Assembly: GCA_044229475.1 (NCBI GenBank)
Contig: JBGASW010000007.1
Coordinates: 62,054-126,053, forward strand
DNA length: 64,000 bases
DNA from: Thermoanaerobaculia bacterium
Lineage (GTDB): Bacteria > Acidobacteriota > Thermoanaerobaculia > UBA5066
Direction: 5' to 3'
A program made the translations under genes and the position numbers. The notes beneath the pieces are model-generated. The model did no database searches. It had not been told where the DNA came from and saw only the letters and a program-made list of their open reading frames with translations. Positions 33,963-44,333 of this stretch are shown here, piece by piece. How positions within the stretch are numbered: the first letter of the stretch is position 1; each line of letters opens with the position of its first letter.

Positions 33963-35579
33963 TCAGCGGCGGATCTCGTTCCAGAGGCGCCGGATGTTCC
34001 CCGGCTCGGGCGGCGGCGCGCCGGGGGCCGGGGGTGGAAGGCGGACTTCGAGGAACAGGCCGCCGCTTCCCGTGGCGCCGAGCGTCGCGGCGGCGGCGCG
34101 GAACGCGTCGGCGCGCTCGACGAGCGCGACACCGGGCGAGAAGCGCCGGATCGCGTCCGCCACCGCCCCTGCGGCAGGCTCGGCGCCCTCCACGGGAGGC
34201 GCGCCCTCGACGAGCCAGACCCGTTCGATGTGGCGGTAGTTGTAGAACTTGACGACGTCGCGGCCCTTGCGCGTCACGACGAGGACGCGCAGGGTCGGGT
34301 CGCGGTCGAGGAGGTCGCGCGCGCGCGCGCCCATTGCGTTCGCCGGAGCAAGGTACTCGCTCTGGGCGTCCGCGGACGGCCCGAAGAGCGTCGCGTACTC
34401 GGCGAACCCGAGGGCGCCGGGCGCGAGAAGCGCGGCCGCGAGGGCGAGACGCGCGCGCGGCCACCTCCGCCACGCCCGGCCGACCGCGAGGGCGGCGAGG
34501 AGGACGATCGCGGGCTGCAGCATGAGGAGCCGCGTGAGGCTCGGTCCCGAGACGCCGAGGAGGAGCGTCCCCGCCCCGAGCACCCAGAGAAGATAGGAAA
34601 GCCCGGCGGGCCGAGGCCCGCGCGCCGCGAGGACGAGGCCGCACGCGAACGCGACCGCCGTGACGGGGTCGACGGGGTGCACGCCGGCGCTCGTGACGGA
34701 GACGGCCGTCGCGTCGAAATTGTGGCCGGGCCCGAGCCACACCGTGTAGAAGCGCGGAAGGTGGAAAGGCAGGAGCGCCGTCCAGAAGACGTTCACGACC
34801 TTCCACGTCCAGCCGCCGCGGTACACGTAGTAGCCGCGGAAGAGGAACTCGCCGGGCTCCCGCAGGAAGAAGAGGACGTTCGGAATCGACGCGACGGCGA
34901 TCCCGGCGAGCGCCGGGCCGAGCGCCGCGCGCCACGCGCGTTCCGCCCGCGGCTTCTTCAGCTCGCCCGCGGCCGCCCAGAGCAGCCAGGCCGGGGCGAG
35001 GACGCGGCACGAGCTGTAGGCGTAGACGGACAGGCCGAGGACGAAGCCCGCCGCGAACCGGACCCGCCACGTCGCTCCGGCCGCTGCTCCCGCGTGAACC
35101 AGGAGGACGGCGAGCAGGAAGAAGAGAGGGGCGGAGATCGCGCGCAGGCCGACCTGCCCGTAGTGGAAGAGCCAGACGGAACCCGCCGACAGGAGAAACG
35201 GGATCGCGGGGGGCGTGTCCGGGTCGAGCCGGCGCGCCGCGAGGACGGTGAGAAAGACGACCGTGGCCGAGGCAAGGACGGACGGAAAGACGACGGAGCC
35301 CCAGCGCGGACCGAAGAGCTCGACGGACCCGCCCATCACGTAGAGCCAGAGCGTCTCCGCGGAAGGCCCGATCGCGAACGAGAGGACGTCGAAGCGCCGC
35401 CGCACGACGAGGTGCACGCCGCGCAGCGCTTCGACGGCGGGTCCGCCCTCGAGGCCGGACGGGATGCGGCCGAACGACAGCGCGTGGACGGCGAGGAGAG
35501 CCGGAAGCCCCAGGGCGAGCGTCCACGCGAACGCGGGGAAGGAGCGGCCCGTCCCGGCGGCCGCGCCGCGCGTCGTCAT
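33963..35579 (-). CDS. Polytopic integral membrane protein, ArnT/PMT (GT39)-like glycosyltransferase family (hypothetical)
   Basis: 538 aa, many TM helices, large periplasmic C-terminal domain; convergent with preceding paralog-like gene. Confidence 0.5.
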   Translation of the reverse strand: MTTRGAAAGTGRSFPAFAWTLALGLPALLAVHALSFGRIPSGLEGGPAVEALRGVHLVVRRRFDVLSFAIGPSAETLWLYVMGGSVELFGPRWGSVVFPSVLASATVVFLTVLAARRLDPDTPPAIPFLLSAGSVWLFHYGQVGLRAISAPLFFLLAVLLVHAGAAAGATWRVRFAAGFVLGLSVYAYSSCRVLAPAWLLWAAAGELKKPRAERAWRAALGPALAGIAVASIPNVLFFLREPGEFLFRGYYVYRGGWTWKVVNVFWTALLPFHLPRFYTVWLGPGHNFDATAVSVTSAGVHPVDPVTAVAFACGLVLAARGPRPAGLSYLLWVLGAGTLLLGVSGPSLTRLLMLQPAIVLLAALAVGRAWRRWPRARLALAAALLAPGALGFAEYATLFGPSADAQSEYLAPANAMGARARDLLDRDPTLRVLVVTRKGRDVVKFYNYRHIERVWLVEGAPPVEGAEPAAGAVADAIRRFSPGVALVERADAFRAAAATLGATGSGGLFLEVRLPPPAPGAPPPEPGNIRRLWNEIRR

Positions 35580-35631: not shown

Positions 35632-36207
35632 TCAGCGGATCGGGACGAGCGTGGGCGTGGGCGCGGGCGGCGCGGCGCGGCCGGGCGCGGGCTTCGCGGG
35701 TTTGAGGCAGGCCTCGGGGGCGCCGACGTTGATGACCTTCATGCCGTTCCAGGTCGCGGGCCCCGGCCCGTCGTTGTTCGCGAAATTGGATTCGGCGATC
35801 TTGTGGTCGCGGTTCACCGTCGCGTGGAAGGGGTGCGGGGCTCCCGCCTTGATGTGGGCGGGATCGGCGTCGTAGTACGTGATCGGAACCGACACCTGCC
35901 GGGTTTCGCCGGGCGCGAGCGGCGGGTCGATCGCGACGCCGGTGCCGAACGAGTCGGGATTCGGCAGGTGCATGTCCGCCACGACGACGACCGGTCGGTT
36001 GGGGCCGCTCCAGCTGGCGGTCCCCTGGTTCTTCACGCCGACCGAGAACGTGAAGAGGGTCTGACCCTTCACGCACGAGGTCCCCCACGAAGCCAGTCCG
36101 AAGCTCGTGATCACGAGATCGGGCATCGGGGCGGGCGTGGTGTTCTGTGCGGCCGCGGAACCCGCGGCCATGGCGAATACGGCGGCGAAAACGAGAGCTC
36201 TTTTCAC
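35632..36207 (-). CDS. Hypothetical secreted protein (CARDB/Ig-like)
   Basis: GTG start with AGGAGG SD; signal peptide VKRALVFAAVFAMAAGSAAAQ. Confidence 0.5.
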   Translation of the reverse strand: MKRALVFAAVFAMAAGSAAAQNTTPAPMPDLVITSFGLASWGTSCVKGQTLFTFSVGVKNQGTASWSGPNRPVVVVADMHLPNPDSFGTGVAIDPPLAPGETRQVSVPITYYDADPAHIKAGAPHPFHATVNRDHKIAESNFANNDGPGPATWNGMKVINVGAPEACLKPAKPAPGRAAPPAPTPTLVPIR

Positions 36208-36389
36208 GAGACCTCCTGATGCCGCCGAATGTAAGGCCTGGCGGGCCCGGCGCAAGGCCCGGCCGTGGCTCCCGGACGCCAGAACCGGGTTTCGGGGCGT
36301 CACGGCGCCCCGAAACGGCCCTCCGGCGCGGCCGAATGGTTCAAATGAGGGATGGACGGCCCTCGGCCGCCCCCCGACATTGACCTTGG

Positions 36390-38027
36390 ATGACTCTGTC
36401 CCGGATTCCCTTCCACCGCCGGCTCGGCTTCAAGATCACGGCCACTGCGGCGGCGGCGATCCTCGTGCCCGTCGCGATCGTGGCGGCCGTCACGATCCGC
36501 GCCCAGCACGACGAGCTCGTGGCGCGCGCGCAGGGCAGCGCCGCGATCCTCTCGGAGACCGTCCGGAGCGCGACGCACGACTTCATGCTGAAGGACCAGC
36601 GCGAGGACGCGTACCGGATCGTCGAGATCGTCGGGCACGAGAGCCTCCGCGAGGGCAGCTCGATCGAGAGCGTCCGGATCTTCAACAAGCAGGGCGCCAC
36701 CGTGTACTCGACCGACCGCGCCGAGATCGGGCGGATCGCGGACAAGAGCGCCGGGGCCTGCGCGCCGTGCCACGGCGGGGCGGGCGCGCCGATCGCGAAC
36801 CCCGACCCCGCGACGCGCAGCCGGATCTCGGCGGTCGGCGACCGGCGCGTCCTCTCGTTCGTGACGCCGATCTACAACGAGGCCGCGTGCGCGGCGGCCG
36901 GCTGCCACGCGGCGCCGAAGGAGCAGCGCGTTCTCGGGCTCCTCGACGTCGCGCTCTCGCTGCGCGACGTGGACGACCGGCGCGCCGCCGCGACGTGGCG
37001 GATCGTCGGGCTGTCGCTTCTCGCGCTCGTCGCCCTGACGGCGCTCGTCTCGGCGATCGTCCGCGTCCTCGTGTTCCGTCCGGTCTCGGACATGCTCGCG
37101 GCGACGAAAGACCTCGCGCACGGCGGCACGCCGGCGCCCCTCCCGATCCGGTCGGACGACGAGCTCGGGATGCTCGGCCGCTCGTTCAACGAGATGAGCG
37201 ACTCGCTGCGCAAGGCCCGCGCGGAGCTCGAGCGTGCCGCGGACGGCCTCGAGCGCCAGGTGGAGGAGCGGACGGCCGCGCTCCAGCGGGCGCAGGAGGC
37301 GCTCGTGCAGTCCGAGAAGCTCGTCTCGCTCGGGACGCTCTCCGCGTCGATCGCCCACGAGATCAACAACCCGCTCGCGGGCATCCTGACGTTCGCGCGC
37401 CTCATGACGCGCACGCTCGAGTCGGGCGAGGTCGACGACGCGGCGCGCGCGGCCTGCCTGAAGAACCTCGGGCTGATTCAGCGCGAGACCGAGCGCTGCA
37501 CGCGAATCGTGCGGAGCCTCCTCGATTTCGCGCGGGCGCGCCCGATCGAGCTCCACGCGGTCGACGCCGTCGCCGCTCTCGACGAGGCCGTGTCGCTCAC
37601 GCAGCACAAGCTCCAGCTCGAGCAGGTCGCCGTGACGAAGGATCTCGACGGCGCGGCGGTCGTCCAGGGCGACTTCGGCCAGCTGCGGCAGGTCTTCGTG
37701 AACCTCATCCTGAACGCCTGCGACGCGATGCCGGGCGGCGGGACGCTCACCGTGACCGCGCGGAAGGTGGACGACGGGCGCACCGTGGAGATCGCCCTCT
37801 CGGACACGGGCGCGGGCATCGCGCCCGAGCACCTCTCGCGGATCTTCGACCCGTTCTTCACGACGAAGCAGATGGGCACGGGCCTCGGCCTCTCCGTCGC
37901 GTACGGCGTCGTCGAGAAGCACGGCGGCTCGATGAAGGCGGTCAGCCGCGTCGGCGCGGGGACGACGATGACGATCCGGCTCCCGCTCGCCGGGGAGACG
38001 GCGGCGCCGGCGGGCGCCGCCGCGTGA
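36390..38027 (+). CDS. Sensor histidine kinase with periplasmic c-type heme-binding sensor domain
   Basis: TM-periplasmic domain-TM-HAMP-HisKA (SIAHEINNPL)-HATPase_c (GTGLGLS); periplasmic domain has CAPCH (CxxCH) and CAAAGCH (Cx4CH) motifs. Confidence 0.8.
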   Translation: MTLSRIPFHRRLGFKITATAAAAILVPVAIVAAVTIRAQHDELVARAQGSAAILSETVRSATHDFMLKDQREDAYRIVEIVGHESLREGSSIESVRIFNKQGATVYSTDRAEIGRIADKSAGACAPCHGGAGAPIANPDPATRSRISAVGDRRVLSFVTPIYNEAACAAAGCHAAPKEQRVLGLLDVALSLRDVDDRRAAATWRIVGLSLLALVALTALVSAIVRVLVFRPVSDMLAATKDLAHGGTPAPLPIRSDDELGMLGRSFNEMSDSLRKARAELERAADGLERQVEERTAALQRAQEALVQSEKLVSLGTLSASIAHEINNPLAGILTFARLMTRTLESGEVDDAARAACLKNLGLIQRETERCTRIVRSLLDFARARPIELHAVDAVAALDEAVSLTQHKLQLEQVAVTKDLDGAAVVQGDFGQLRQVFVNLILNACDAMPGGGTLTVTARKVDDGRTVEIALSDTGAGIAPEHLSRIFDPFFTTKQMGTGLGLSVAYGVVEKHGGSMKAVSRVGAGTTMTIRLPLAGETAAPAGAAA

Positions 38028-38605
38028 GCGAGGTCCTCCTCCTGTGGATCGGAGTTCGGGACCCGGCCGCGGATCTCCTCGAAGGCGTTCGCCGGAGCGT
38101 GGCGCGCGAGTTCGAGATCGACGCCCGCGTGAGCGTCTCGGCCGAGCGCCCCGAGGACGCGTTCGACGCGCGCCGGGGTCAGCACTCGTCCACGCGGATC
38201 CTCGCGTGGCTGCAGGAGCGCCGGGAGGGGGCGCACCGGGTCCTCGGCGTGACGGACGCCGACCTCTTCATCCCGATCCTGACCTTCGTCTTCGGCGAGG
38301 CGCAGCTCGGCGGCCGCGCCGCGGTCGTCTCGACGGCCCGCCTCGGCGACACCCCGCTGATCCCCGGCGAGCCGGCGCGCATCGCCCTGCGCCTCCAGAA
38401 GGAGGCCGTGCACGAGCTCGGGCACACGTTCGGCCTCCTGCACTGCGCCGACGCGCGCTGCGCCATGGCGCGTTCGCCGAGCCTGAGACACGTCGACGAG
38501 AAATCCCCCGTCCTTTGCCGCGCCTGCCGCGCCCGCACCCGCGAACTCTCGGAGAACGGAGACGTCCATGAGCAAGAAGAACACGCGAATCCTGATCGTC
38601 GATGA
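38024..38605 (+). CDS. Archaemetzincin-like zinc metalloprotease (peptidase M54 family)
   Basis: HELGHTFGLLHC zinc motif plus CX4C...CX2C zinc-ribbon; GTG start overlapping HK stop (GTGA); 3' end overlaps RR start by ~38 nt. Confidence 0.65.
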   Translation: MSEVLLLWIGVRDPAADLLEGVRRSVAREFEIDARVSVSAERPEDAFDARRGQHSSTRILAWLQERREGAHRVLGVTDADLFIPILTFVFGEAQLGGRAAVVSTARLGDTPLIPGEPARIALRLQKEAVHELGHTFGLLHCADARCAMARSPSLRHVDEKSPVLCRACRARTRELSENGDVHEQEEHANPDRR

Positions 38606-39959
38606 CGAGGAGATCGTCCGGGAGTCCCTCTCGGGCTGGCTCGGCAAGGACGGCTACACGATCGGGACCGCGCCCGACGGGCTGACGGCCCTGAAGCTCA
38701 TGGAGGAGCACCCGTGGACGATCCTCCTCGTGGATCTCAAGATGCCCGGCATCGACGGGCTCGAGGTCCTGAGGCGCGTCAAGGAGCGCTGGAGCGACAC
38801 GGCCGTCCTCATCATGACGGCCTACGCCACCGTCGACACGGCCGTCAACGCGATGAAGGCCGGCGCGTTCGACTACGTCGTCAAGCCGTTCGACCCCGAG
38901 GAGGTGAGCCTCGTCGTCGAGAAGATCGTCGCGCAGCAGGCGCTCGTGCGCGAGAACGTGATCCTCCGGAAGGCCCTGAAGAAGGAGTACCGGTTCCACG
39001 ACCTCGTCACGAAGAGCCCGGCGCTTCTCGCGACGCTCGAGCTCGCGAAGACGGCCGCGCGCAGCCCGTCCACGGTCCTCGTCCTCGGGGAGAGCGGAAC
39101 CGGCAAGGAGCTCCTCGCCCGCGCGATCCACGCCGAGAGCCCGCGCAGCGGCAAGCCGTTCGTCGCGATGTCCTGCGCGGCCCTGACGGAGACGCTCCTC
39201 GAGTCCGAGCTCTTCGGGTACGAGAAGGGCGCGTTCACGGGCGCGAACGGCCGGCGGGAAGGGAAGTTCGAAGCGGCGAGCGGCGGCACGCTTTTCCTCG
39301 ACGAGATCGGCGACATCAGCCCGAAACTCCAGCTCGACCTCCTGCGCGTCCTCGAGGAGCGCCGGGTCACGCGGGTGGGCGGCACGGATTCGCTGCCCGT
39401 CGACGTCCGGATCATCGCCGCGACGAACCGGGACCTCCGGCGGGCGGTCGAGGAGGGCCGATTCCGGCAGGATCTCTTCTACCGCCTGAACGTCATCACG
39501 ATCACGCTCCTCCCGCTGCGCGAGAGGAAGGAGGACATTCCCCTGCTCGTCGACCGGCTTCTCGAACAGCTCTCGTCGGAGCTCAAGCGCCCCGCGGAGC
39601 GCGTCTCGCCCGAGGCGATGGCGATCCTCCTCGCCCACTCGTGGCCCGGGAACGTCCGCGAGCTGCGCAACGTCCTCGAGCGCGCGATCGTGGTCTCCGA
39701 GGGCCCCGTCCTCGAGGCCCGGCACCTCGGTCTCGTCCTCCAGGACGGCGCCGCGGCGCCCGTTCCCGAGCACCCGGCCTCGCTCGAGGAGATCGAGCGC
39801 CAGTACATCGGAAGCGTCCTCAAGCAGAGCGGCGGCAACGTGACGCAGGCCGCCCGCATCCTCGACATCGACCGCGTGACTCTCTACGCCAAAATTCGGA
39901 AGTACGGGCTGAAACGCGCGGAAGACGGGGAGTTCGAACCCGCAACGCCCGCCCGCTGA
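38568..39959 (+). CDS. Sigma-54-dependent Fis-family response regulator (NtrC-like)
   Basis: REC domain (ILIVDDE ... DLKMPG), AAA+ sigma-54 activator domain (GESGTGKE, GAFTGA, ESELFGYEKGAFTG), C-terminal Fis HTH. Confidence 0.9.
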   Translation: MSKKNTRILIVDDEEIVRESLSGWLGKDGYTIGTAPDGLTALKLMEEHPWTILLVDLKMPGIDGLEVLRRVKERWSDTAVLIMTAYATVDTAVNAMKAGAFDYVVKPFDPEEVSLVVEKIVAQQALVRENVILRKALKKEYRFHDLVTKSPALLATLELAKTAARSPSTVLVLGESGTGKELLARAIHAESPRSGKPFVAMSCAALTETLLESELFGYEKGAFTGANGRREGKFEAASGGTLFLDEIGDISPKLQLDLLRVLEERRVTRVGGTDSLPVDVRIIAATNRDLRRAVEEGRFRQDLFYRLNVITITLLPLRERKEDIPLLVDRLLEQLSSELKRPAERVSPEAMAILLAHSWPGNVRELRNVLERAIVVSEGPVLEARHLGLVLQDGAAAPVPEHPASLEEIERQYIGSVLKQSGGNVTQAARILDIDRVTLYAKIRKYGLKRAEDGEFEPATPAR

Positions 39960-39983: not shown

Positions 39984-40020
39984 ACGAACGCGCGGGCCTC
40001 CCGCGCGTTCTTTCGTTCTT
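39984..40020 (+). terminator. Rho-independent terminator after the sigma-54 regulator gene
   Basis: Perfect hairpin GAACGCGCGGG-CCTC-CCGCGCGTTC followed by TTTCGTTCTT. Confidence 0.6.
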
Positions 40021-40079: not shown

Positions 40080-40095
40080 TGGCCCGGTCCGTGCA
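40080..40095 (+). promoter_or_regulatory. Candidate sigma-54 (-24/-12) promoter TGGCCC-N5-GTGCA
   Basis: GG and GC dinucleotides at correct 12-nt spacing, ~15 nt upstream of first operon ORF; downstream of an NtrC-type activator gene. Confidence 0.35.
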
Positions 40096-40109: not shown

Positions 40110-40361
40110 ATGATGAACGACACCACGACCGCCTGCCCCTGGCTGAAGCAAGTCGTGATGCTCTATTGCGACGCCTGCCCGACGAAAAAGATGGTCCCGC
40201 GCGACCAGCTCGTGTCCATGGGTCCGTGCCTCGCCGGCTCCTTCTCGGAGTGCGCGATGTACCGCGAGATGGTCCAGAGGCTCGAGGCCGGCGCCGCCCG
40301 CAACGACGATGAAACGGAAGCGAGCCTCGCGGCCGCTTCCGGGAGGGAGGTCCCGTCATGA
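40110..40361 (+). CDS. Hypothetical Cys-rich small protein (83 aa)
   Basis: 5 Cys (C-x10-C-x2-C-x16-C-x7-C), coding codon bias, stop overlaps next start (ATGA). Confidence 0.4.
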   Translation: MMNDTTTACPWLKQVVMLYCDACPTKKMVPRDQLVSMGPCLAGSFSECAMYREMVQRLEAGAARNDDETEASLAAASGREVPS

Positions 40362-40457: not shown

Positions 40458-41366
40458 ATGAACCTGAACCGCCGCAACCTTCTCAAGATCGCCGGCGCCG
40501 CCGGTGCGGGAGCCGCCCTCACCGGCGGTGCCCTCGCGTCGGCCACGACGCGAGGGGCCGCGAAGGACGCCGTCGGCGTTCTCGTCGACACGACGCGCTG
40601 CGTCGGCTGCCGCGGCTGCGAGGCCGCGTGCTCCGAAGCGAACGCGCTCGCCGCTCCCGACATGCCGGGCGACGACGCCGTGTTCGCCGCGCGCCGCCGG
40701 ACGGGACCCACGAGCTTCACGGTCGTGAACAAGTCGACCGCGAAGAGCCCCGCGGGCGAGGACCGCTACGCGAAGACGCAGTGCATGCACTGCGTGACGC
40801 CCGCCTGCGCGTCGGGCTGCGTCGTGAAGGCGCTCGAGAAGACGGCCTCGGGGCCGGTCGTGTACCACGAGGACCGCTGCCTCGGGTGCCGCTACTGCAT
40901 GATCGCGTGCCCCTTCAGCGTGCCGAAGTACGAGTACACGAAGGCGGCGCCCCTCGTGAAGAAGTGCACGTTCTGCGCGGCGCGCCAGGAGAAGGGCCTT
41001 CCGCCGGCCTGCACGGACGCGTGCCCCTCGGGCGCGCTCACGTTCGGCAAGCGGGCCGACCTCCTCGAAGAGGCCAAGACCCGCATCTACCAGAACCCGA
41101 CGAAGTACGTCCACGAGATCTACGGGGAGGACGAGGCCGGCGGCACGAGCTGGCTCTACATCTCCGACGTCTCCTCGGCGAGCCTCTCGCTCCCGCAGGA
41201 CATCGTGAAGAAGTCCTACCCCGAGATGGCCGACGGCGCGCTCTCGGCCGTCCCGTTCGTCGTGACCCTGTGGCCGCCGCTCCTCATGGGTCTCTACACC
41301 TTCAGCAAGCGGGTGGGCGACGTCGCCGGCCGCGAGAGCGCGCACAAGGGAGACGGCCATGAGTGA
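40458..41366 (+). CDS. Tat-exported 4x[4Fe-4S] ferredoxin-type subunit with C-terminal membrane anchor (HybA/PsrB/NrfC-like)
   Basis: Twin-arginine signal NRRNLLK; four Cys clusters (CVGCRGCEAAC, CMHCVTPACASGC, CLGCRYCMIACP, CTFC...CTDACP); C-terminal TM helix. Confidence 0.85.
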   Translation: MNLNRRNLLKIAGAAGAGAALTGGALASATTRGAAKDAVGVLVDTTRCVGCRGCEAACSEANALAAPDMPGDDAVFAARRRTGPTSFTVVNKSTAKSPAGEDRYAKTQCMHCVTPACASGCVVKALEKTASGPVVYHEDRCLGCRYCMIACPFSVPKYEYTKAAPLVKKCTFCAARQEKGLPPACTDACPSGALTFGKRADLLEEAKTRIYQNPTKYVHEIYGEDEAGGTSWLYISDVSSASLSLPQDIVKKSYPEMADGALSAVPFVVTLWPPLLMGLYTFSKRVGDVAGRESAHKGDGHE

Positions 41367-42582
41367 GACCTTCGACCGTGTGGCGGCTTCGGCCTTCCTC
41401 CGCGAAAAAGTCTTTCTCGGCATGGAGCCGAAGACGTACGCGAAGAGCCTCTTCACGAAGACGAACGCGATCTTCGCGGCGATCCTCGCCGTCGGCCTGC
41501 CCACGATGGCCTACAGGTTCTGGCACGGCATGGGCGCGGTGAGCAACCTCTCGCAGACGAACCCCTGGGGCATCTGGGTGGCGTTCGATATCGTGTGCGG
41601 CGTCGCGCTCGCCGCCGGCGGCTACACCGTGGCCGCGGCGGTCTACCTGTTCGGACAGAAGCAGTTCGCCCCGGTCCTCCGCCCCGCGATCCTCACGGGC
41701 TTCCTCGGCTACGCCTTCGTCCTCGTCGGCCTGCTCGTCGATCTCGGGCAGCCGTGGCGGCTCCCGTACCAGTTCTTCCTCACGCCCGGCACGACCGCCG
41801 TCATGTACGAGGTCGGCTGGTGCGTCTTCCTGTACCTGATGGTCCTCGCGCTCGAGTTCCTTCCGGCGGCGCTCGAGTGGCTCGGGATGACGAAAGTTCG
41901 CCGATTCATGAGCGCGATCTCGATCGGGATCATCGTCCTCGGCGTCACGCTCTCGACGCTCCACCAGTCCTCGCTCGGCGCCTTCTTCCTCATGTCGCCC
42001 GGCAAGCTCCACCCCCTGTGGTACTCGCCGTTCCTCCCGATCTTCTTCTTCGTGTCCTCGATCGCAGCGGGCATCGGGATGGTGATCTTCGAGAGCTCGG
42101 TCTCGCACCGGGCCTTCCAGGACCGGCTCGACCCCGAGGCGCACGTCGACATGGACGCGCTGCAGCTCGGGCTCGCCAAGGGCGGCGCGGTCGTCCTCTT
42201 CGCGTACTTCTTCATCCGCCTGCAGGGCCTCGTCGCGTCCGGCCGGTTCGACCTCCTCCTGACCGGGTGGGGCGCCTGGTTCGCGCTCGAGATGGTCGGC
42301 TTCGTCCTCCTGCCGTCGCTCCTCTTCGCCTTCGCCGTGAGGACCCAGAATGCGAAGCTCGCGCGCGCCGCCGGCGTCATGACGGTGCTCGGCGTCGTCC
42401 TCAACCGCTTCAACGTGTCTCTGATCGCGTTCAACTGGAACGTGCCGGACCGGTACGTTCCCGCGCTCGGAGAGATCGTCATCTCGATCACGATCGTCAC
42501 GCTCGGCGTCCTCGTGTTCCGCTGGATCGTCAACCGCATGCCCGTGCTCCGCGAGCATCCGGACTGGCGCGGCGCCCACTGA
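41359..42582 (+). CDS. NrfD/PsrC/HybB-family polytopic quinone-interacting membrane subunit
   Basis: 407 aa, ~10 TM helices, NrfD-family pattern; 8-nt overlap with Fe-S subunit gene. Confidence 0.85.
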   Translation: MSETFDRVAASAFLREKVFLGMEPKTYAKSLFTKTNAIFAAILAVGLPTMAYRFWHGMGAVSNLSQTNPWGIWVAFDIVCGVALAAGGYTVAAAVYLFGQKQFAPVLRPAILTGFLGYAFVLVGLLVDLGQPWRLPYQFFLTPGTTAVMYEVGWCVFLYLMVLALEFLPAALEWLGMTKVRRFMSAISIGIIVLGVTLSTLHQSSLGAFFLMSPGKLHPLWYSPFLPIFFFVSSIAAGIGMVIFESSVSHRAFQDRLDPEAHVDMDALQLGLAKGGAVVLFAYFFIRLQGLVASGRFDLLLTGWGAWFALEMVGFVLLPSLLFAFAVRTQNAKLARAAGVMTVLGVVLNRFNVSLIAFNWNVPDRYVPALGEIVISITIVTLGVLVFRWIVNRMPVLREHPDWRGAH

Positions 42583-42599
42583 AAGAGCGGAGAAGAAAC

Positions 42600-43265
42600 A
42601 TGAACGAAAGCAGCCTCCTCAGCCCGCACGCCACGAAGGCCCTCGAGTACCTGCTCGCGGTCTCGTACCTCCTGCTCTTCATCCCCTTCTGGCGCTTCGT
42701 GAACGGCGCGACGATCGCGCAATCCTTCGCGCTCGGATGGTTTCAGGTCCCCGAGAACGTCCACCTGCACCGCGGGCACTCGTGGGCCAAGACGTTCGGC
42801 GGCGCCGTCGCGGTCGGCCTGGACGACTTCGCCCACAAGCTGATCGGCCCGCTGGACGAGGTGCGGTTCCCCGCGGTCGGCACGCCGCTCCGGCAGGGCC
42901 AGAAGGCCTTCACGGTCGTCGCGGACGGCAAGCCCTTCGACGTCGTCTCGCCCGTGGACGGCAACGTCGTCGCGGTCAACGAGGTCGTGCACGCGCACCC
43001 GGCCGACGCCGTCCGCGATCCGTACGGAACGGGCTGGCTCCTGAAGGTCGAGCCGCGCTGGCTGACCGCGAACCTCAAGAACCTCGTCTCCGGCGACTCC
43101 GCCCGCCGCTTCCTGGATGCGGCCGCCCAGGCGCTCTCGGGCCGCATGAGCCCGGAGCTCGGCGTCGTCCTCCAGGACGGCGGCGCCCCGGTCCACGGCA
43201 TCGCCCGCGAAATCGACCCCGAGCACTGGGACGAGGTCGTGCGCCACCACCTGAAGGGCGAGTGA
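42600..43265 (+). CDS. Membrane-anchored glycine-cleavage-H (GcvH)-fold protein, lipoyl-Lys position conserved
   Basis: N-terminal TM helix then region colinear with GcvH (HRGHSWAK ... AVGLDDFAHKLIGPLDEV ... VVADGKPFDVVSPVDGNVVAVNE ... DPYGTGWLLKV). Confidence 0.65.
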   Translation: MNESSLLSPHATKALEYLLAVSYLLLFIPFWRFVNGATIAQSFALGWFQVPENVHLHRGHSWAKTFGGAVAVGLDDFAHKLIGPLDEVRFPAVGTPLRQGQKAFTVVADGKPFDVVSPVDGNVVAVNEVVHAHPADAVRDPYGTGWLLKVEPRWLTANLKNLVSGDSARRFLDAAAQALSGRMSPELGVVLQDGGAPVHGIAREIDPEHWDEVVRHHLKGE

Positions 43266-43275
43266 GGAGGACGCG

Positions 43276-43626
43276 ATGAAAGCCCGCATCCATTTCCTCG
43301 CGGCGACCCTCCTTCTCGCCCTTCTCTCGGCGACCCTCCTCGCGGGCGCGCTGCCGAACCTCCCGAAGGAGAAGGCGCTCCCGCAGGGCGACGGCAGCCC
43401 CGGCGTCGTCACCTTCCGCCACGACTCCCACGTCGACGCCTCGCGCCCCGACTGCACGACGTGTCACCCGACGCTCTTCCCCATCGTCAAACGCACCGCC
43501 TCTTCGGCCGCCCCCGCCGCGATCCGCCACGCCGACATGGAAAAAGGCAAGAGCTGCGGCTCCTGCCACGACGGCAAGAGCGCCCACGGCCTCGACGACT
43601 GCGGGACGTGCCACAAGGCCAAGTGA
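43276..43626 (+). CDS. Triheme c-type cytochrome, cytochrome c7/c3-like
   Basis: Signal peptide; three CxxCH (CTTCH, CGSCH, CGTCH); VTFRHDSH motif as in Geobacter PpcA. Confidence 0.8.
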   Translation: MKARIHFLAATLLLALLSATLLAGALPNLPKEKALPQGDGSPGVVTFRHDSHVDASRPDCTTCHPTLFPIVKRTASSAAPAAIRHADMEKGKSCGSCHDGKSAHGLDDCGTCHKAK

Positions 43627-43634
43627 GGTGACCC

Positions 43635-44333
43635 ATGACGCCTCTTGAGTTCCTCCAGCTCGCCGGCATCTTCCTCGCGGGTCTCGTCGTCCGCGCCCTC
43701 GCCTTCACGCTCGTCCTCGCGGTCTGCGCGCTCCCGATCCTCGCGGCCTGGGCGCTCTGGCGCGCCTGGCAGAAGCTGCGGGACCGCAGCATCGGCCTCG
43801 TGGACGTGGGCGGGCTCGAGCTCGCCGAGGCGCACCACTACGCCCCCGGCCACACGTGGCTCCAGCGGCGGGCGCGCGGCTCGGTCCGCGTCGGGCTCGA
43901 CGAGATCGCGGGCCGGCTCCTGCACGGGCCCACGAGCGTCACGCTCCCGAGGCCGGGCACCGTCCTGGCCGCCGGCCTCCCCGCCGCCACCGTGAGCTGC
44001 CACGGGCGCGCCGCCGCGATTCCGGCGCCCATCTCGGGCACGGTCGTCGCGACCAACCCGGCCGTCGTCCGCGACCCCTCGCTCCTCGAGGAGTCGCGCT
44101 ACCGGGACGGCTGGCTCTTCGCGATGAAGCCCGCGACGGCCGCGTTCCTGACGCTCCCGACCGGCGAGACCGCGCGCTCCTGGTTCAAGGACGAGACGGC
44201 GCGCTTCTCGCGCGCGCTCGAGACCGAGCTCGGCCTCCTCGCCGCGGACGGCGGCGAGCTCGTGGTCGAGGCGCCCGCGCTTCTCTCGGAGGAGAAGTGG
44301 CAGCGCCTCGTCTCGGAGTTCCTGAAGGGCTGA
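43635..44333 (+). CDS. Membrane-anchored GcvH-fold protein lacking the lipoyl lysine (Cys-His at equivalent site)
   Basis: Two N-terminal TM helices then GcvH-like region (YAPGHTWLQ ... VGLDEIAGRLLHGP ... SGTVVATNPAVVRDPSLL ... DGWLFAMKP); K replaced (VSCHGRAA). Confidence 0.6.
   Translation: MTPLEFLQLAGIFLAGLVVRALAFTLVLAVCALPILAAWALWRAWQKLRDRSIGLVDVGGLELAEAHHYAPGHTWLQRRARGSVRVGLDEIAGRLLHGPTSVTLPRPGTVLAAGLPAATVSCHGRAAAIPAPISGTVVATNPAVVRDPSLLEESRYRDGWLFAMKPATAAFLTLPTGETARSWFKDETARFSRALETELGLLAADGGELVVEAPALLSEEKWQRLVSEFLKG

Follow-up and report, generated by a model that had tools for sequence, protein, structure and literature searches.

Structures of archaemetzincins have been solved and homologues occur from archaea to humans, and to our knowledge none of them except the degenerate CarG has a known physiological substrate or role. 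A two-component system with an additional middle gene is also familiar from Escherichia coli, where QseE-QseG-QseF (GlrK-YfhG-GlrR) is encoded in the order kinase, accessory protein, sigma-54 regulator and the middle product is needed for signalling. Here, both themes meet in a stretch of 64,000 nucleotides from a Thermoanaerobaculia bacterium (phylum Acidobacteriota; assembly GCA_044229475.1, contig JBGASW010000007.1, positions 62,054 to 126,053; hereafter the window), where an archaemetzincin gene (amz) stands between the genes of a haem-motif sensor histidine kinase and an NtrC-type sigma-54-dependent response regulator. QseG itself is an outer-membrane lipoprotein that acts in the periplasm; it is unrelated in sequence to amz and is no metallopeptidase.

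The only characterised bacterial homologue, and the best precedent for amz, is CarG from Myxococcus xanthus, an archaemetzincin-like protein with two zinc ions and an HQxxH motif that is non-proteolytic, does not bind DNA and associates tightly with the transcription factor CarD, carG being translationally coupled to carD (PMC8156234). CarG and the window protein share the Cx4CxMx16CxxC spacing, and both genes are coupled to, or overlap with, the gene of a transcription regulator. However, the catalytic Glu is replaced by Gln in CarG, whereas amz keeps HExxH, as do all 81 sequences aligned here, and the partner of CarG is the HMGA/CarD_CdnL-type CarD, whereas the neighbour of amz is a sigma-54 AAA+ response regulator. 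In archaeal AmzA the cleft is closed and standard assays detected no activity, an outcome interpreted as the requirement of a trigger or of a highly specific substrate (PMC3427221); AMZ-tk, in contrast, degraded casein (PMC4681839).

On the signalling side, one of the closest described systems is BccR (GSU0598) from Geobacter sulfurreducens, a sigma-54 regulator that induces cbcBA at low redox potential from a -24/-12 promoter (10.1101/2021.04.15.440034). Its neighbour by locus tag, GSU0599, is a kinase with two haem motifs (PMC3831638), in likeness to the cassette described here, and in both cases the module concerned is an inner-membrane, quinone-linked electron-transfer system, although the target of BccR is the b/c-type cytochrome CbcBA and not an HmcB/HmcC/c7/GcvH-like set. 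No archaemetzincin is mentioned in the BccR paper (10.1101/2021.04.15.440034).

The three genes of the window occupy positions 36390-39959 as follows:

36390-38027, plus strand: sensor histidine kinase, 545 aa (open reading frame, Pfam, transmembrane segments, H-box).
38024-38605, plus strand: archaemetzincin (amz, Peptidase M54), 193 aa (Pfam, NCBIfam, fold model, dN/dS, the ratio of nonsynonymous to synonymous substitution rates).
38568-39959, plus strand: NtrC-family sigma-54-dependent response regulator, 463 aa (Pfam, NCBIfam, motif positions).

They are co-directional and overlapping. The GTG start of amz shares the tetranucleotide GTGA with the kinase stop, and its final 38 nucleotides lie within the regulator gene. 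An initial annotation, made from the letters of this DNA, had named the same three families and described both overlaps; a domain search now bears out the identities by family profiles, motifs and coordinates, and the overlaps are where it had placed them.

To follow amz through other genomes, relatives were collected in a scan that took one genome per species; more than 597 were found, the best 80 loci were kept, and their gene order was read by tblastn with the window proteins. In 79 of these 80 loci, amz adjoins a sigma-54 regulator. The arrangement of the window (kinase-amz-regulator) accounts for 43 loci, a second order (kinase-regulator-amz) for 32, and in four the pair regulator-amz lies at a contig end. 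Then, the presence of this protease in a two-component operon, which the initial annotation had considered unusual, is instead the rule for its clade, and the three-gene arrangement, whose conservation it had proposed to check, does recur elsewhere. The loci span at least eight phyla, with representatives from Acidobacteriota (several classes), Anaeromyxobacter (including the cultured strain PSR-1), Bacteroidota, Ignavibacteria, Gemmatimonadota, Methylomirabilis, Desulfobacterota/Geobacteraceae and Eisenbacteria. Moreover, start/stop overlaps tie amz to its neighbours across loci.

The association was also approached from the kinase, in a metagenome sample scanned with a narrow sensor alignment and biased towards closer relatives, in which loci with enough downstream sequence were counted. 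Among those with a sigma-54 regulator, amz adjoins it in 20 of about 24-25, and it is found in none of the seven loci that combine a hybrid kinase with REC-only partners (L122, L133, L145, L150, L159, L163 and L164). More distant amz homologues (36-42% identity) give a similar picture, with a sigma-54 regulator next to amz in seven of eight informative contexts. For example, in locus L169 (2939-6886) the kinase input is a [FeFe]-hydrogenase-like module (Fer4, Fe_hyd_lg_C, FeS) fused to HisKA/HATPase_c, followed by amz and the sigma-54 regulator; HydE/G/F-like genes lie upstream of this cassette and NuoE/NuoF-like genes downstream. In L167, amz and the regulator lie beside a NiFe hydrogenase and no kinase is adjacent, and in L178 the pair has no redox genes within 5 kb. 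Because the adjacency persists over distant loci with differing sensors and enzymes, the constant neighbour of amz is the sigma-54 regulator and not the haem kinase, whereas sensor and regulon vary. No description of this archaemetzincin/sigma-54 regulator pairing was found in the literature searched, in which subscription-journal papers are thinly represented.

The protein itself shows the sequence and predicted-fold features expected of an archaemetzincin, and its NCBI name is 'archaemetzincin family Zn-dependent metalloprotease'. It matches Peptidase_M54 (PF07998) with 68.6 bits against a cut-off of 24.4 and NF033823 with 147.2 bits, barely above the cut-off of 145 (nine relatives score 148-168). 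It carries the zinc motif HELGHTFGLLHC together with C146, M148, C165 and C168:

38411..38527, plus strand: zinc sites of amz (HELGHTFGLLH at aa 130-140, C141, C146, Met-turn M148, C165 and C168).

Across 81 aligned sequences, H130, E131, H134, H140 and C141 are invariant, C146, C165 and C168 are kept in 80, and M148 in 79. The Cys/Met spacing is Cx4CxMx16CxxC, with X16 in place of the X17 typical of the family, a departure shared with CarG (PMC8156234). A comparison with AmzA from Methanopyrus kandleri (PDB code: 2X7M) gives an E-value of 3.4e-29, and the AlphaFold2 model (mean pLDDT, the predicted score of the local distance difference test, of 85.6) matches the same structure in Foldseek with an E-value of 1.6e-17, TM-scores of 0.81/0.86, a root mean square deviation of 2.1 Å and 38% identity. 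Then, amz and the archaeal enzymes (also Archaeoglobus fulgidus, PDB codes: 3ZVS and 4AXQ) have in common the fold, the zinc His/Glu motif, the Met-turn and the Cys4 site, whereas the window protein is bacterial, belongs to a two-component operon and has 16 and not 17 residues between the Met-turn and CxxC. No signal peptide or transmembrane segment was found in amz, consistent with a cytoplasmic location. A doubt raised at the outset, that this frame might lack coding signal or conservation, is answered by dN/dS values of 0.19-0.48 against seven orthologues, which indicate purifying selection; because of this selection and of the invariant catalytic residues, amz is a real gene with an intact catalytic site.

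The last residues of the protein (180-193) are predicted to be disordered, and the conserved tail HEQEEHxxPDRR is the regulator start MSKKNTRILIVDD in another frame (window 38568-38605). The 38-nucleotide overlap recurs in 13 loci, and most other kinase-amz-regulator loci overlap by 1-8 nucleotides. An assignment to the CarG equivalog (NF033824) was rejected: the score is 112.1 bits against a cut-off of 250, the catalytic Glu is kept and the neighbours are not CarD. Also, the amz proteins from Anaeromyxobacter are no nearer to CarG than the others.

The synteny suggests a three-component cassette in which amz works on or with the sigma-54 regulator, a reading towards which we lean. As a cytoplasmic protein, amz would be a dedicated third component acting on cytoplasmic signalling proteins and, in view of the synteny pattern, most probably on the regulator. 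It could do so as a tightly bound cofactor, as CarG does for CarD, as a very specific peptidase, or as both; because every cassette-linked amz keeps the catalytic Glu, a role as a specific (or activated) peptidase on the regulator would be at least as likely as pure binding. The proteolytic control suggested in the initial annotation is accordingly one of two candidate modes; in view of the inactive archaeal AmzA and the non-proteolytic CarG, action by binding would be no less likely than cleavage.

Several observations weigh against this reading. The single exception among the 80 loci, L081, has no regulator beside amz, which is placed before a gene for a small protein with four cysteines (the small 4-Cys gene, present also in the window), a GcvH-like gene and HmcB/HmcC. 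About four close sigma-54 systems in the kinase-anchored sample (L115, L155, L166 and L142) are without amz, which means that amz is dispensable for signalling there. Moreover, in L176/177 an amz of 40% identity (L176:5001-5959) overlaps the gene of a NUDIX hydrolase; a LysR-type regulator is encoded upstream and no two-component system is present, so the family has at least one other genomic context. By gene adjacency alone, a partner looks the same as a substrate or as a helper that is merely co-expressed, and the failure of archaeal AmzA to act in standard assays (PMC3427221) is a further point against.

What the cassette would control is suggested by the sequence that follows it. The regulator has all the elements of its class, namely Response_reg (7e-31), Sigma54_activat (1e-70) and HTH_8 (7e-15) domains, with D56 inside LLVDLKMP, the Walker A motif GESGTGKE at aa 174 and GAFTGA at aa 221. 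Downstream of it, the following features are found:

39986..40010, plus strand: terminator-like hairpin with an 11-bp stem, 9 GC pairs and a T-rich tail, closing the regulatory operon.
40080..40095, plus strand: sigma-54-type -24/-12 element TGGCCCGGTCCGTGCA, directly before a small open reading frame.
40110..40361, plus strand: small 4-Cys protein, 83 aa, whose gene comes first after the sigma-54-type promoter.
40458..44333, plus strand: presumed regulon with an HmcB/HybA-like iron-sulfur protein of the twin-arginine translocation type, an HmcC/NrfD-like membrane protein, a GcvH-like protein, a trihaem c7 cytochrome and a second GcvH-like protein (Pfam, NCBIfam, synteny).
42600-43265 and 43635-44333, plus strand: the two membrane-anchored GcvH-like proteins, in the HmcB/HmcC/c7 operon.

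The promoter cannot be claimed from one genome: the sigma-54 consensus is non-significant there, with 15 matches in the window against 30 expected by chance, and the -12 element of the window reads GTGCA and not TTGC, a point against its assignment. Only the positional conservation of the element counts as evidence. At 25-40 nucleotides before the homologous small open reading frame, a -24/-12 element scores at least 9/11 in 27 of 35 sequences (the window included), compared with 1.1% of random windows from the same loci, and most of the remaining loci have the variant TGGC-N8-TTGA in place of TGGC-N8-TTGC. The promoter at 40080 is then a likely target of this regulator, and the HmcB/HmcC/c7/GcvH-like operon would be under its control.

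The small 4-Cys protein has no match in Pfam or NCBIfam. Its homologues are present in 46 loci, with C9, P10, C20, K27, P30, C40 and C48 invariant, and its gene follows the regulator also in L167 and L169, whose enzymes differ. When aligned to solved H-proteins, both GcvH-like proteins have Gly at the position of the lipoyl-lysine (one has Lys at the next position, the other Cys-His just before), and the two proteins are probably not lipoylated. An identification of the operon with CbcMNOPQR or CbcBA from Geobacter was rejected, since those have 10-, 5- and 7-haem cytochromes and b-type cytochromes. As a separate observation, GcvH-like and HmcB/HmcC genes also adjoin the seven hybrid-kinase relatives of the haem sensor mentioned above.

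Based on this layout, a sequence of events can be proposed. The two-motif Cache domain of the membrane kinase would report the periplasmic redox state or a small haem ligand, for example nitric oxide (NO), and the kinase would phosphorylate D56 of the co-transcribed sigma-54 activator. The phosphorylated activator would switch on the -24/-12 promoter at 40080, which would drive expression of the small 4-Cys protein and of the HmcB/HmcC/c7/GcvH-like, quinone-linked redox module, with amz intervening at the level of the cytoplasmic signalling proteins.

Among the alternatives, the one that survives best, unlikely as we consider it, is that amz is a maturation or processing peptidase for an operon product such as the small 4-Cys protein or a GcvH-like protein. 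It would resemble HybD and HycI, hydrogenase endopeptidases that are encoded with their substrates. The proposal draws on the finding that amz always lies in or beside a redox-enzyme cluster, and on L081, where it directly precedes the small 4-Cys and GcvH-like genes with no regulator at its side. Nonetheless, the neighbouring enzymes vary from HmcBC/c7 to NuoE/F-like proteins, NiFe hydrogenase or, in L178, none within 5 kb, and in the window amz belongs to the transcription unit of the regulator, upstream of the terminator and of the sigma-54 promoter. The small 4-Cys gene points in both directions, being associated with the kinase-amz-regulator order even in distant loci with other enzymes, but not detected by tblastn in the 32 loci of kinase-regulator-amz order.

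A second alternative, which we regard as rather improbable, makes amz an additional, cytoplasmic input, in which oxidation or zinc loss at the Cys4 site would modulate the kinase or the regulator and join thiol-redox or zinc status to the haem signal. The retention of this site in 80 of 81 sequences and the redox nature of the modules under the cassette speak for it. Also, Graef et al. considered that the Cys4-Zn site might act as a regulatory switch through oxidation, although their Cys-to-Ala mutant led them to consider the site mainly structural (PMC3427221). Moreover, the catalytic Glu and the three zinc His are likewise invariant, which argues that catalysis matters.

Regarding the signal, the kinase fits the class I transmembrane type, with two transmembrane helices, HAMP, HisKA with its conserved His and HATPase_c. 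The three domains score above the Pfam cut-offs and the H-box histidine is H323, inside HEINNP. Hydrophobic segments at approximately aa 12-40 and 199-233 frame a periplasmic domain of about 160 residues; the topology given in the initial annotation holds, whereas its length of about 170 residues was slightly too large. The relevant features of this domain are the following:

36498..36983 (approximately aa 37-198), plus strand: periplasmic sensor domain of single-Cache/PDC fold (AlphaFold2 model, Foldseek, profile search).
36759..36773 (aa 124-128), plus strand: CAPCH, an extra haem-c motif of CxxCH type, located in a helix that lies between beta strands.
36888..36908 (aa 167-173), plus strand: CAAAGCH, a Cx4CH motif aligned with the CxxCH of GSU0935/GSU0582.
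36843-36845, plus strand: kinase residue 152, Arg where a near-invariant His is found elsewhere.
36912-36914, plus strand: kinase residue 175, Ala where a near-invariant His is found elsewhere.

The relationship with the c-haem sensor domains from Geobacter, already suspected in the initial annotation, is recovered by profile searches against the Protein Data Bank, with E-values of 1.8e-6 for GSU0935 (PDB code: 3b42) and 3e-5 for GSU0582 (PDB code: 3b47). The Cx4CH motif aligns with CQSCH of both structures with an insertion of two residues, and M66 aligns with the Met pair in their N-terminal helix. The AlphaFold2 model of the domain (pLDDT of 84.4) has a single-Cache/PDC fold whose top Foldseek matches are WalK, CitA, DcuS and TlpB, with 3b42 at rank 11. 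A comparison with GSU0582 and GSU0935 then shows in common the periplasmic Cache fold, a putative haem motif in a helix inserted before the last strands and the Met of the N-terminal helix; in contrast, the window sensor has Cx4CH where they have CxxCH, an extra CxxCH in an inserted segment which they lack, and neither of the two histidines, H152 and H175, that are near-invariant in its relatives. In a word-index protein search the sensor domain alone gave four matches, and the full-length kinase was used as query instead.

Non-conservation of the haem motifs, the outcome that the initial annotation had named as refuting its reading, is not what is found among 66 orthologous kinases, defined as those adjoining amz homologues in other genomes. 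The CxxCH is retained in 62 of them and the second motif in all 66 (Cx4CH in 64, Cx3CH in two), with a His after the second Cys of the C...CH pattern in every orthologue; M66 and R96 are invariant as well. PF21563 (Mcp40H-20_sensor) matches 35 of 39 orthologous sensors at E < 0.1, the best at 1.5e-7. On the opposite side, the window sensor is below the PF21563 cut-off of 27, with 18.4 for the full-length protein and 22.6 for the domain alone, and it has R152 and A175 at positions occupied by His in 49 of 53 and 48 of 53 relatives, respectively. H175 is missing from the closest clade as well, while the absence of H152 is particular to the window protein; where present, both histidines are possible distal haem ligands.

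These deviations, together with the non-canonical spacing of Cx4CH, are what would favour a sensor whose Cys/His motifs bind metal or form disulfides in place of c-type haem, a reading we judge very unlikely. The invariant C...CH pattern and the alignment of Cx4CH and of the conserved Met with the haem CxxCH and Met of two solved sensors argue against it. Additional haem motifs have been noted in sensors of this type for GSU0591, GSU0599, Adeh_2011 and Adeh_3383 (PMC3831638), with which the window protein shares the presence of a second motif, and a c7 cytochrome encoded in the neighbouring operon indicates that the organism matures c-type cytochromes. The window sensor is predicted to bind haem covalently. 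By analogy with the Geobacter sensors and with BccR, the signal would probably be a haem ligand or the redox state of the periplasm. In a 2026 preprint the family is reclassified under the name 'sCache_heme', and members fused to signalling modules are described as having properties like those of NO sensors (PMC12889525). Because the literature covers both the family and its two-motif variants, the kinase sensor is not new in kind but an added member of an already described haem-c Cache family, and a dihaem Cache sensor with a Cx4CH site would be of smaller, further interest for haem-sensor biochemistry.

Finally, the idea that an ancestral operon picked up the gene of a housekeeping peptidase and has carried it along without function is the least credible of the alternatives, since, despite the loss of amz from some close systems with no replacement and its one non-two-component context (NUDIX, L176/177), its adjacency to the regulator persists over at least two gene orders, at least eight phyla and differing sensors and regulons, the start/stop overlaps are maintained and the gene is under purifying selection.

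A linkage that persists while gene order, phylum, sensor and regulon change argues for a single, specific molecular partner. Each of the three genes comes from a known family, and what is new is the conserved archaemetzincin/sigma-54 regulator pairing. It is tentatively proposed that kinase-archaemetzincin-sigma-54-regulator cassettes may form a widespread, undescribed three-component class for anaerobic redox and hydrogen modules, with amz as the partner of an enhancer-binding protein, whether as a bound cofactor, as a peptidase that cuts at a specific site to activate or inactivate it, or as both. If this were true, it would be the first physiological role for prokaryotic archaemetzincins and a new accessory control of enhancer-binding proteins, beside NifL, PspA and HrpV, and the CarG of myxobacteria would represent a catalytically dead offshoot of the same principle. 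It would also define a module by which bacteria from soils and sediments, such as Acidobacteriota, Anaeromyxobacter and Geobacteraceae, regulate gene clusters for low-potential respiration and hydrogen metabolism. In any case, the linkage provides a concrete, testable hypothesis for a family that has lacked an assigned function ever since it was discovered.

Some database open reading frames fuse HATPase_c with M54 or AAA_lid_14 with M54 (P0384, P0260, P0052 and P0279). They mirror both gene orders, and a single wrong base where stop and start overlap would be enough to yield them; then, the fusions may be real or frameshift artefacts and, being partial proteins, were not counted as evidence. 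Public data hold identical proteins under the label Thermoanaerobaculia, Acidobacteriota. In the window, which has a G+C content of approximately 72%, the long antisense and alternate-frame open reading frames over 36390-39959 have no Pfam matches and are GC artefacts. An Rfam scan of the region matched no family and a sigma-70 promoter scan found none. Divergently upstream of the kinase, on the minus strand, lies the gene for a secreted CARDB-domain protein (35632-36303), followed by that of a large membrane protein that weakly matches PMT_2 glycosyltransferase (33963-35579, minus strand); a CARDB gene adjoins the kinase in L005 too.

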